DNA of 40,116 nucleotides from a virus: UHGV virus genome UHGV-1361477; one strand, given 5' to 3'. This document shows positions 34,956 to 38,816 of the stretch, in pieces (position 1 is the stretch's first letter; the number at the start of each line of letters is the position of its first letter). Below the pieces are notes generated by a model that did not search any database, was not told where the DNA came from, and worked only from the letters and a program-made list of their open reading frames with translations. The translations under genes were made by a program, and so were the position numbers.

Positions 34956-36392
34956 ATGACAGACATTACAGCCAATGTTGTAGTCAGCATGCCTTCGCAA
35001 CTCTTCACTATGGCTCGTTCTTTTAAAGCCGTAGCTAATGGAAAGATTTATATCGGTAAAATTGACACTGACCCAGTAAATCCTGAAAACCAGATTCAGG
35101 TTTATGTAGAGAACGAAGACGGCTCTCATGTTCCCGTTTCGCAACCAATCATCATTAACGCCGCTGGTTACCCTGTATATAACGGACAGATTGCCAAATT
35201 CGTAACTGAGCAAGGCCATTCTATGGCTGTTTATGATGCGTATGGTGCACAGCAGTTCAAATTCCCAAATGTGCTGAAGTATGACCCGGATCAGTTAAGA
35301 GTAGTTTTGACTGGACAGTCTGGTGATGGACTTAAGAATTTTTATGCTGGCTCAGGATGGACTGGTTCAGATGCAGCTGGTGACAATATTTATAACAATG
35401 AAACTATCATATATAAAAATGCTACACGACAGAGATTCTCCATACCAGAAACACCAATTCCAGATCCCATTATTTGGCTGGAAAAAATTAGTTCTGCAAC
35501 TAGGGATGACGGCATCAAACGATGGGATCAGGGGGTAATTTATAACTCTTTGCGCAAGGTGTCAGGAAGTGCATATACATGCACAACTACAAGTGTTGCT
35601 AAGCATGAGGGAGGGAATGGGCATTCAATTGGTCACCACATGCGTGGAGAATCAAGAAATCCGCAAGCCGAAACATGGGGGGGGTGGTCATATGGTGCAG
35701 TATTAGGAGATGCAGTGCAGAATGGAGCGATTAGCACTATTGCACATGAATTTAATCTGAATAATCGAGGTCCCGATAAAGGATGGATGGAGAATGCACT
35801 GCAAGGATCTGTAAGAGGGTTGGTATGTGTAACTCAGGATAAAAGCAATCCAGTAACACAGATGATTACCATCGGAAGAGGGAGTGAAGCTCCAAATGGT
35901 TATATCTGGACAGGAATGTTGTTTAGAGGTAATTCTATTTCCACTCCAACAGAGGAACTAACCGAGGTAGGTAATGGCGAATACATCAGACTTGAGGGAT
36001 CTCTATCATCTGGAGCTGCAAACGGCATTAGATTTAGAACAAATTATTTTAGGAGTGGAATTTCATTTTCTGAAGCTAGATTTTCAAACAACTGCGCAAT
36101 TTTGATGGGCGACAATCAACGAATTACGGTAGGAACGGGCCCGGCAAATACAACACATTTGAGTTTCAACAGGGCTGAGAACTGGGCTAACTTCAACAAC
36201 TTAAGAATACGACTTAATGGCAATCAAGTTATTTCAGAGAGGAGGACGGGATGGGGATCGCCAACCGGCACCGTATCCCGAGCAGCATTTAACTCTGGAA
36301 CAATAACTCACGAAGATTTAGCAAAGGTAGTTGCAGCATTAATTCAGGACTTACATGCTTCAACCGGGCATGGATTAATTGGTTTAACTTAA
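34956..36392 (+). CDS. tailspike / receptor-binding protein with P22-like N-terminal head-binding domain
   Basis: 478 aa; first about 115 aa ([17 protein letters not shown]...LKYDPDQL) match P22 gp9 N-terminus; remainder unrelated and shorter than known tailspikes. Confidence 0.8.
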
Positions 36393-36404
36393 CAGGACAA
36401 TAAA

Positions 36405-36590
36405 ATGGATAAGCAAACTATTCAAAATATCATGCAGTTTATGCTTCGCGTAAATCTTAGCGGTCATGAAGTTCCTGCTTTTAATTCTTCAATGAATGCA
36501 TTACAGGCTGAATTAGATCGCGAAAATGACCAGCCACTCCAGCGAGTACTAAATGCTGCTCACAATGAACCTGTTACGGAGAATGATTAA
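36405..36590 (+). CDS. hypothetical small protein (61 aa)
   Basis: ORF with AGGA SD immediately after tailspike. Confidence 0.45.
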   Translation: MDKQTIQNIMQFMLRVNLSGHEVPAFNSSMNALQAELDRENDQPLQRVLNAAHNEPVTEND

Positions 36591-36591
36591 A

Positions 36592-36798
36592 ATGAAAACA
36601 GAAAGCGGTGCTTTCAAATTTGACGGTGGAGAGGTTAAAGGAATTAACAGCATTGCCATTATTGAGGTGCGCGGTAACGGGTGGGGCGCTGGTTTTTATT
36701 TTAAGCCAAATACTGCCGTTAAAGTCGATGGTAATAAGCCTGATCTGAACGAGTTTCGTGATTCCTGCGCATTGTCGGTAATGACTCCAACTTACTGA
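36592..36798 (+). CDS. hypothetical small protein, 3' end runs into IS1 terminal repeat
   Basis: 68 aa; last 7 codons are encoded by the IS1-end fragment starting at 36777. Confidence 0.45.
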
Positions 36799-36905
36799 TA
36801 GTGTTTTATATTCAGATAATGCCCGATGACTTTGTCATGCAGCTCCACCGATTTTGAGAACGACAGCGACTTCCGTCCCAGCCGTGCACCAGGCTGGTTC
36901 AGAAT
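36777..36905. mobile_element. IS1 terminal fragment (about 125 bp of one end, remainder absent)
   Basis: GGTAATGACTCCAACTTACTGATAGTGTTTTAT...CCGTCCCAGCCGTGC matches recalled IS1 inverted-repeat end; match is lost after about 36905. Confidence 0.6.
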
Positions 36906-37329
36906 CATGTTCTGCTGATTTTGTCCGGCGGCAGAACGCAATTTGCCAGAGTGATGGGAAGGGCATTAATCACGGATGATGGTGAAGCGATCGAAGTGGA
37001 GGCGGCGGAAGAGGTGGAGGTGATGTGGCGTGTTACGTACTTCATCAACAGCGCGCTGCAGGATGGCGTGGTGGTGTGATGGGTGGCATTACCCCACCTT
37101 TTCATCAATCCAGTCCGCCCACCACTGCAGCATGTCTCTGCATTTATCGTAGTTGATGCATCACTATCACCCTGTAATGGCTTATTACTGGTTTGCATAC
37201 AGGTAGGCATGAACAGATACCTACACATGAAGATGGAACTAGTCCGGATGCGATATTTTTGGTGATCACGTACATCATCAACGAAGCGCGTTATGTTGAG
37301 TTTTATGACTGCCAAGTAATGTGAAAATT

Positions 37330-37637
37330 GCGATGCGTACCAAATTGTGTACCAAATTAAAATCATAAACCATGAAACCCTTACTCATGGCTGTTCTCAG
37401 GCTGGGTGCGTGTAATCGTGAAAGAGGAAGGTAGGTTGTTTATCTGTGTCTGTCATTGTCTAGCATTGTCCACTGTAGTTAATTAACTGTCTGTTATAAC
37501 TCGAAAAACAACCATTTTTTCACCTGAGTATGTCTACGAACGTCAAATATAGTTGTTTACTGTGCGCTGTTGTCCATGTGATATTGTGTACCAGATGTGT
37601 ACCAAACTATTATTTCTGAGCGTACCAAATATTATTT
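37330..37637. promoter_or_regulatory. putative attP region with arm-type repeat motifs
   Basis: GTACCAAA repeated (37334-37357 twice; 37586-37606 twice; 37620-37630) and CATTGTC repeats at 37452-37470; upstream of int. Confidence 0.4.
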
Positions 37638-38816
37638 ATGGCTATAAGCGACACAAAACTGCGTACTATTTATGGTAAACCATATTCGGGCCCACAAGAA
37701 GTGGCTGATGCCGATGGCCTCAGCGTACGAATTTCACCGAAGGGGGTCATCCAGTTCCAGTACCGCTATCGCTGGCATGGCAAGCCTAATCGACTTGGGC
37801 TTGGTCGATACCCATCCCTGTCTTTGAAGGATGCCAGACAGATCACTGCTGACTTGCGAAAGCTCTATTTCTCAGGAACGGATCCACGCACCTATTTTGA
37901 AGAGAAGGTGGAGAACTCCATGACGGTCGCCCAGTGTCTCGACTACTGGTTCGACAACTACGTCTCTACAACTCTCAGAGAAAAGACCCAGGCACTTTAC
38001 CGATCAACGGTTATGAAGCGCATGCATGACGCCTTTCCTAATCGTCCGGCATCTTCTATCACGGTTAAGCAATGGGTTGACCTGCTTACCGAAGAAGAAA
38101 GAGATAATCCACGCCGAGCAAGGCAGGTGCTAAGTCAACTAAGATCAGCAATAAGTTGGTGCATGCGGCGTCAGTTGATAGATAGTTGCGCAATTATGAG
38201 CATCCAACCAAGGGACTTCGGCTCCCGCGCTGAGGTAGGGGATCGGGTACTGTCGTATCACGAACTGGCTAAGATTTGGCTTGCTATTGAAAGAAGCCGT
38301 GCGTCTACGTCAAATAAGCTCCTTCATCAGATGCTTATGCTGTGGGGGGCGAGGCTCTCAGAGCTTAGGCTGGCAACAAAGACAGAATTTGACCTGCTGG
38401 ACAACGTATGGACCGTACCGAAAGAGCATAGCAAGATGGGTAATGTTATCCGCCGTCCAATCTTCGAACAAATTAAGCCTTTTCTCGAAAAAGCCATGAC
38501 AACGTACAATGATGTTCTTTTCCCTGGAGAAGACATAAACAAACCGATCAGCATCGCTGCAGCCAACCGATTCGTAAATAGAATAAGGGGAGGGATGGAT
38601 CTGGGTTACTGGCGAACACATGATTTCAGAAGAACGCTTGTTACACGTCTGTCCGAGATGAATGTCGAGCCTCATGTTACTGAGCGAATGCTCGGTCATG
38701 AACTTGGCGGGATAATGTCAGTATACAATAAACACGACTGGATAGAGGCTCAGCGCAAAGCGTATGAGCTTCACGCTGATAAATTGTTCTGGCACATCAG
38801 GAGCATTTCTGATTAA
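37638..38816 (+). CDS. int: tyrosine integrase (phage integrase family, P4-like arm-binding N-terminus)
   Basis: 392 aa; catalytic signature HDFRRT...LGH...VYNKHD; N-terminal arm-binding domain. Confidence 0.9.
   Translation: MAISDTKLRTIYGKPYSGPQEVADADGLSVRISPKGVIQFQYRYRWHGKPNRLGLGRYPSLSLKDARQITADLRKLYFSGTDPRTYFEEKVENSMTVAQCLDYWFDNYVSTTLREKTQALYRSTVMKRMHDAFPNRPASSITVKQWVDLLTEEERDNPRRARQVLSQLRSAISWCMRRQLIDSCAIMSIQPRDFGSRAEVGDRVLSYHELAKIWLAIERSRASTSNKLLHQMLMLWGARLSELRLATKTEFDLLDNVWTVPKEHSKMGNVIRRPIFEQIKPFLEKAMTTYNDVLFPGEDINKPISIAAANRFVNRIRGGMDLGYWRTHDFRRTLVTRLSEMNVEPHVTERMLGHELGGIMSVYNKHDWIEAQRKAYELHADKLFWHIRSISD

Follow-up and report, generated by a model that had tools for sequence, protein, structure and literature searches.

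Lysogenic-conversion cargo is carried between the tailspike gene and the attachment site in P22 (gtrABC) and in Sf6 and Sf101 (oac). Relatives of the phage described here carry a glycosyltransferase gene at the same genomic position; unlike these cargoes, it is a single family-2 glycosyltransferase (GT2), neither gtrABC nor an acyltransferase, and it is deleted in the present phage. A second known component is the integration module of phages 2851, Sf101, mEp234 and HK140, whose attP serves integration in sbcB and in which a humD/UmuD-like gene ends about 10 bp before the P arm, as it does here. A third is IS1. The complete element is 768 bp long, with insA/insB and both terminal repeats, and its target-site duplication is 8-9 bp. 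IS1 promotes adjacent deletions; such transposase-promoted deletions begin at the IS terminus and leave the IS intact.

The window, that is, the whole stretch of 40,116 nucleotides analysed here (UHGV-1361477), belongs to a P22-like (Lederbergvirus-type) temperate phage, and the interval 36405-37637 lies between its tailspike gene, which encodes a protein of 478 aa with the P22 head-binding domain and ends at 36392, and its integrase gene. As a whole, this interval was matched with at least 80% query coverage at no place in 5426 complete E. coli genomes (among the matches listed, where an identical arrangement could escape in IS1-rich genomes) or in 50,697 phage records; piece by piece, it matches various relatives. 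Rfam and tRNA scans of 36300-37750 gave 0 families and 0 tRNAs, and a promoter/terminator scan found no enrichment of such sites across the interval. The pieces and their coordinates are collected in Table 1. The junctions within 36777-37324, and the homologies on their two sides, are demonstrated by the alignments. Very probably, this segment has no function and is the scar of three distinct events that befell the ancestors of a P22-like temperate phage, and attP (about 37325-37637) would be the sole working element of 36777-37637. The first-pass annotation had seen here two small ORFs, an IS1 end and decayed sequence before attP. Its observation is confirmed and all pieces can now be named: an IS1 end, two umuD-like remnants, an integrase tail and attP. 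Of its interpretation, the IS1 end, the fusion ORF, a later deletion and gene remnants stand, while an IS-mediated mechanism and a cargo of the gtrABC/oac type do not.

Table 1. Features between the tailspike gene and the end of the integrase gene (positions in the window)
Feature	Position	Strand	Remarks
orf61, intact small gene	36405-36590	+	same 61-aa gene called directly 3′ of the tailspike gene in L010-L018
orf88, cut to a 68-aa fusion	36592-36798	+	62 native residues, then IS1-read VMTPTY and stop
IS1 right-end fragment	36777-36887	-	terminal inverted repeat; last 31 codons and stop of insB
Deletion junction	36880-36887		8-bp microhomology AGCCGTGC; three-way alignment of window, IS1A and PK12 (L025)
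humD/umuD′-like no. 1, 3′ remnant	36880-37079	+	some 66 codons left of 104; nt identity to PK12, where the gene is intact, 93.7%
3′ stub of argW-type intS integrase gene	37089-37149	-	61 nt; last 19 codons and stop (...INYDKCRDMLQWWADWIDEKVG, stop)
humD/umuD′-like no. 2, remnant (HK140 gp28 type)	37150-37324	+	5′-truncated; internal deletion of about 60-70 nt; frameshift
attP region, phage 2851/Sf101 (sbcB) type	37325-37637	+	core TGTAATCGTGAAA at 37411-37423
2851-type tyrosine integrase	37638-38816	+	Pfam Arm-DNA-bind_3 and Phage_integrase

The first of the two small genes, orf61, always follows a tailspike receptor-binding domain of this type in the relatives (L010-L018), and the second, orf88, has been interrupted. 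DNA homology of orf88 to the uninterrupted genes of L010 and L011 (97-98% identical) ceases exactly at 36776, and IS1 enters at codon 62. Homologues in the relatives P0002-P0005 run on for 88-94 aa and read "...DSCALS MFPLPAIDALY...", from which the window ORF differs at its C-terminus; the homologue of Phapecoctavirus nieznany has 90 aa. The ORF is therefore, as had been proposed, a 3′-truncated fusion. The stop codon comes from IS1 as claimed, but the number of IS1-derived codons is six rather than seven, plus the third base of Ser62. Profile searches against Pfam and NCBIfam assigned none of orf61, orf88, orf80 and orf79 to a family.

These small genes have a wider distribution together with the tailspike. 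Across different virion types, orf61 accompanies its receptor-binding part (residues ~114-478), and orf88/orf80 and GT2 usually do so too (window 34956-36798; L024 3308-5210; L007 1602-3433). The amino acid identity of this part is 68% in E. coli E3, in a prophage of lambda-like (TipJ) type, and 26% in Phapecoctavirus nieznany, a myovirus of 145 kb in which homologues of orf61 and orf88 stand behind it. This distribution suggests that the receptor-binding domain and the small accessory genes form a mobile cassette. In the prophages of EF5-18-41 and PK12 (L001 2552-2906; L025 3378-3746), the PGAP annotation of the tailspike is limited to its head-binding domain, given as a partial pseudogene, with ~1.1 kb left unannotated; the window and L010 have an uninterrupted ORF of 478 aa.

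The sequence that interrupts orf88 is the right end of IS1. A pairwise alignment of 36777-36887 with annotated IS1A (L006) gave 109 identities in 111 positions and begins with base 1 of the right terminal repeat (GGTAATGACTCC...), and the minus-strand translation is the C-terminus of InsB. The terminal inverted repeat (~23 bp, GGTAATGACTCCAACTTA...) at 36777-36799 equals the right repeat of IS1A with one mismatch. Against the IS1A/IS1B elements of Escherichia and Shigella, the 23-bp right repeat and the insB 3′ end are thus 98% identical over 111 bp, and the fragment is joined to target DNA precisely at its terminal base; the orf88/IS1 joint at 36776/36777 is a genuine and precise transposition joint. 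The match from 36777 onward, which the first-pass annotation had assigned to IS1, recurs as IS1 copies in 4965 of the 5426 complete E. coli genomes when 36777-36905 is searched, with a median of 10 copies per genome. Unlike a complete element, however, the window keeps only 111 of 768 bp: IS1 identity stops at 36887, no more IS1 sequence follows, and ~657 bp are absent. Without insA and the left repeat, the fragment cannot transpose, and the target-site duplication is not recoverable, since the deletion also took the opposite end of the IS with the adjoining DNA.

The end of the IS1 match needed correction. A stretch at 36893-36915 resembles IS1 at 20 of 23 nt, and this chance likeness led BLAST and PGAP to extend the match to 36903-36917 and the earlier reading to end it near 36905. 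The true end is 36887, and 36880-36887 is common to IS1 and to the humD-like gene of PK12. The possibility that 36888-36915 represents a diverged IS1 isoform was considered and rejected: the PK12 humD-like gene matches from 36880 on at 94%, and no E. coli IS1 copy matched 36888-36915 better than at about 94% with two indels in the same test. The likeness of 36893-36915 to IS1 is a coincidence.

At the point where the alignment switches from IS1 to the humD-like gene, the octamer AGCCGTGC occurs exactly in both sequences. Compared with intact relatives, the window lacks about 2.1 kb of phage DNA, and ~657 bp of IS1 have gone as well. The figure of 2.1 kb is an estimate obtained by splicing L010 2917-3025 with L025 5001-6987 (PK12, with 91% identity in the overlapping part), because L010-L015, which at 97-98% identity are the nearest relatives without the interruption, are short contigs that end inside the GT2 gene. 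In E. coli PK12 (L025), the order is tailspike, small ORFs, orf80, GT2 (minus strand), orf79, humD-like gene (104 aa), intS (minus strand) and tRNA-Arg, and similar cargo is found in E3 and GCA_003291775. What the window has lost from such an arrangement is the 3′ end of orf88, orf80, the family-2 glycosyltransferase gene, orf79 and the 5′ end of the humD-like gene (first ~40 codons). The glycosyltransferase of the relatives has 393 aa, is encoded on the minus strand and matches Pfam PF13704 (Glyco_tranf_2_4) with 35.1 bits against a cut-off of 27.5. A role in O-antigen modification or lysogenic conversion would fit its position and family. The window has no O-antigen cargo between tailspike and attP, and no plus-strand ORF longer than 81 aa in 36393-37637. 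The earlier suggestion that cargo such as the O-antigen genes of P22/Sf6 was lost is thus half right: ~2.1 kb of cargo has gone compared with relatives, but the gene that they carry is GT2 and not gtrABC or oac.

A very probable course of the first two events can be reconstructed. IS1 would have transposed, in a lysogen, into codon 62 of the post-tailspike orf88, and recombination between the two copies of AGCCGTGC, one in IS1 and one in the downstream humD-like gene, would then have removed ~657 bp of IS1 together with about 2.1 kb. A later deletion that took the rest of IS1 had indeed been postulated, and the cut at 36887, at the octamer and followed by the humD-like gene, is in keeping with it. 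The same claim had made the rearrangement IS-mediated, and this part fails, since the deletion ends within the IS1 sequence, at a microhomology of 8 bp, and destroyed the IS; an illegitimate, microhomology-type deletion is therefore indicated, not a transposase-promoted adjacent one. A classical IS1-promoted deletion, in which transposase removes the cargo starting from the IS1 end, could draw on the IS1 end sitting exactly at the orf88 break. It is very unlikely: the endpoint falls 111 bp within the element, which has lost its left repeat, insA and the greater part of insB, and the joint coincides with the 8-bp microhomology. A chimeric assembly join at a repeat as abundant as IS1 (median 10 copies per genome) has hardly any probability either, as identical orf88-IS1 and IS1-humD junctions are present in three independently finished genomes and two IMG/VR contigs.

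Beyond the microhomology-type deletion joint, the window contains the 3′ parts of two humD/umuD′-like genes. The intact counterpart of no. 1 in PK12 encodes 104 aa beginning with MGFPSPAGDYVEQR, and the alignment of PK12 to the window spans 36880-37149 at 93.7% nt identity. By tblastn, no. 1 matched the C-termini of phage proteins named "UmuD-like protein" (E values of 1e-6 to 8e-4), and in translation it could be aligned to the UmuD-like proteins of the phages LAU1, SaltyDalty and CobraSix and to the intact genes of PK12, E3 and L016. A 52-aa ORF at 36921-37079, a "hypothetical" of PGAP in EF5-18-41, is a TTG-started sub-fragment inside no. 1; it gave no BLASTP match to HK140 gp28, and its kinship is seen only via tblastn against phages and through the intact PK12/LAU1 homologues. 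Remnant no. 2 is of the type that normally abuts an sbcB-type attP. The translation of 37193-37324 matched the UmuD-like protein of HK140 by BLASTP (E = 7e-7), and the match to this protein is distributed over two frames, "VDASLSPCNGLLLVC" (HK140 "VDASMSPCDGSLLVC") in one and "...VITYIINEARYVEF" in the other, with about 24 codons absent between the two segments. On the same sequence in strain c1-17, PGAP reports "HumD family ... frameshifted; incomplete".

The two related coding-like segments that had been noticed in this region, RVTYFINSAL and VITYIINEARYV, are both real; they are the C-termini of two different, paralogous humD-like genes, no. 1 and no. 2, and correspond to a DNA repeat (D3) with 82% identity over 22 nt. 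Likewise, the claim that 36905-37330 consists of gene remnants holds, the remnants being these two and the intS 3′ stub. The two humD-like remnants show C-terminal homology to UmuD′/HumD-like members; both are 5′-less, without the N-terminal GFPSPA-DYVE arm, the S24 catalytic domain or any Pfam match. Among intact relatives, the arm is present in PK12 (MGFPSPAGDYVEQR), with an NCBIfam HumD match to residues 1-20 only, and HK140 gp28 matches Peptidase_S24. The window therefore holds remnants of UmuD′/HumD family members and not members themselves. It is highly improbable that functional small proteins are made here from the 52-aa ORF, a 43-aa ORF at 37193-37324 or a 153-aa minus-strand ORF at 36905-37366. 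PGAP annotates the first as a hypothetical protein in EF5-18-41, and an annotated minus-strand hypothetical gene of Sf101 spans the equivalent remnant, but each of the three ORFs is either a piece of a longer gene or runs antisense to one, these longer genes being intact in other genomes, and none has a family match; moreover, the 52-aa ORF starts with TTG without a visible ribosome-binding site, and no. 2 is frameshifted.

Two further observations concern these genes. Sf101 orf17 (L002 3927-4175) and the 153-aa ORF of the window both run antisense across humD remnants and are probably spurious calls. In addition, a conserved two-gene cassette encoding a 79-aa protein and a short humD/umuD′-like protein stands beside att in unrelated lambdoid and P22-like phages at at least four integration sites (L025 6634-7187; L004 1946-2574; L009 2094-2653; L016 7788-8377; L024 6651-7207), and its humD/umuD′-like forms of 104-116 aa have the UmuD′ N-terminal arm, yet no Peptidase_S24 match.

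Between the two humD remnants lies a piece of different origin. The 61-nt intS stub, which the first-pass annotation had overlooked together with the exchange of integration modules that it betrays, is collinear with the 3′ end of the annotated intS in EF5-18-41 (L001 4685-5842) and PK12, and in both of these the minus-strand intS adjoins argW. The window ceases to resemble intS at 37149/37150; no more than the final 19 codons remain, and the IntS-type (P4-like) catalytic domain with R-K-H-R-H-Y is absent from them. Beyond this point, the attR side of the sbcB-locus prophage in strain c1-17 matches the window at 96.6% identity, and in that strain the same stub is found directly downstream of gtrA. 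The junction of the stub with humD no. 2 occurs in c1-17 (96.6%), L016, Sf101 and the IMG/VR contigs L028 and L029, and is more diverged in Sf101 and the lambda-att prophage L016 (84% identity); being widespread and diverged, it is therefore old. The latter prophage (GCA_003291775, L016 8344-8720) carries one more layer of scars, in the order full humD, intS stub, humD remnant no. 2, a second integrase-3′-like stub (77% to the first) and a lambda-type attR next to ybhB/bioA.

A GC-rich hairpin (37070-37098) followed by UUUU (37070-37102 in all) is located between the stop codons of humD no. 1 and intS. Its fold of -20.9 kcal/mol is only marginally stabler than that of shuffled sequences (z = -1.8), and a simple consensus terminator scan did not call it. 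The hairpin might terminate late or cargo transcripts, and this would possibly explain why the stub has been retained. A more elaborate proposal, that the stub, the hairpin and the adjoining humD-like sequences are a conserved linker that both terminates late-operon read-through into attP/int and serves as a crossover point, is unlikely. If true, the linker would be a homologous site at which P22-like and lambda-like phages swap whole integration modules (argW, sbcB, lambda att).

The last part of the interval belongs to the sbcB-type module. The core of attP was placed at 37411-37423 via the annotated 13-bp duplications of phages 1717 and mEp234, which substantiates the earlier assignment of an attP here, and it stands upstream of a 2851-type integrase gene. 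The published 13-bp core is CGTAATCGTGAAA (PMC4159516); TGTAATCGTGAAA of the window differs from it at one position of the 13, and its T variant recurs in the attR of the c1-17 prophage, which departs from the window right after the core. Five direct GYGTACCARA repeats, two to the left (37335, 37347) and three to the right of the core (37586, 37597, 37620), account for five of the seven matches to this motif in the entire window and are plausible arm-type integrase sites. Likeness to the module of 2851/Sf101/mEp234/HK140 extends to the arm repeats and to the integrase region, which is 96-98% identical at the nt level to those of Stx phages, mEp234 and Sf101, and the encoded integrase is the predicted working partner of this attP. 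Prophages with the same left arm adjoin dacD/sbcB, and the phage is a predicted sbcB integrator. There are also differences: the UmuD-like gene is intact in HK140 (129 aa, Peptidase_S24), whereas the window has a frameshifted remnant fused to the intS stub, and Sf101 carries oacB as cargo, whereas the window has no conversion gene.

The IS1 scar is found with another integration module as well. At least three finished E. coli genomes (EF5-18-41, CFSAN061770 and EP91A) have the identical scar in a prophage with intact intS at argW, and IMG/VR contig L026 also has the scar; among the E. coli genome matches listed, its carriers are 95-99% identical. The scar is therefore inherited and not specific to this phage. 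Its position beside an intact argW-type intS, a module other than that of sbcB, means that it is not specific to the present attP context either; it may first have arisen beside either module. The P22-like argW prophages of PK12 (uninterrupted) and EF5-18-41 are collinear with the window through the tailspike, orf61, part of orf88, humD no. 1 and the intS 3′ end at 94-99%, and EF5-18-41 shares the identical scar; they differ in having full intS and integration at tRNA-Arg (argW), where the window has 61 nt of intS and the sbcB module. Contig L027 (IMGVR_UViG_2563366922_000008, 37.8 kb) shows 100% identity with window 35829-36908 across the 1080 bp compared and stops at about this point; it may represent the same phage, or else a predicted prophage that is nearly identical and was cut at the IS1 scar.

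Within the stub, the window agrees with EF5-18-41 at 37109 and with c1-17 at 37134, 37142 and 37143. This mosaic would fit a homologous crossover inside the shared intS 3′ end that swapped integration modules; with only four informative sites, it is compatible with either direction of exchange. As the third event, we envisage that the cargo first ended against convergent intS and an argW-type attP, and that all but the last 61 nt of intS were then replaced by a block from an HK140/mEp234-like lambdoid phage, comprising a decayed humD-like gene, the sbcB-type attP and the 2851-type integrase gene. Most likely, the combination seen in the window arose when an argW-type phage with the IS1 scar and a phage of the sbcB type underwent homologous recombination in the humD no. 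1/intS-3′ sequence that they shared. Both the order of these events and their direction are inferred, and the reverse history is less likely: the IS1-scarred lineage might have had the stub and the sbcB module from the start, and EF5-18-41 and other argW prophages might have regained full intS by recombination. The stub/humD no. 2 junction is widespread and, at 84% in L016 and Sf101, far more diverged than the scar carriers at 95-99%, and it therefore predates the IS1 scar. On the other hand, the scar occurs with intact intS at least three times and with the stub once (the window, plus possibly L027), and the mosaic of the stub fits either direction.

Replacement of the argW-type module in an already scarred phage thus remains the preferred reading, and the locus is a well-resolved but ordinary case of phage mosaicism and IS decay, of a kind already known and implying no new biology. 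Annotators should mark the ORFs of 68, 52 and 43 aa, and likewise the antisense ORF of 153 aa, as pseudogenes or remnants and not as hypothetical proteins. The phage itself is to be recorded as an sbcB integrator without the glycosyltransferase cargo of its closest relatives, and its lysogens probably do not show the surface modification tied to the lost enzyme. The exact junctions reveal three kinds of event, namely IS insertion, microhomology deletion and integrase-module swap, and make the locus a clean worked example of how layered scars build up next to att in lambdoid phages.
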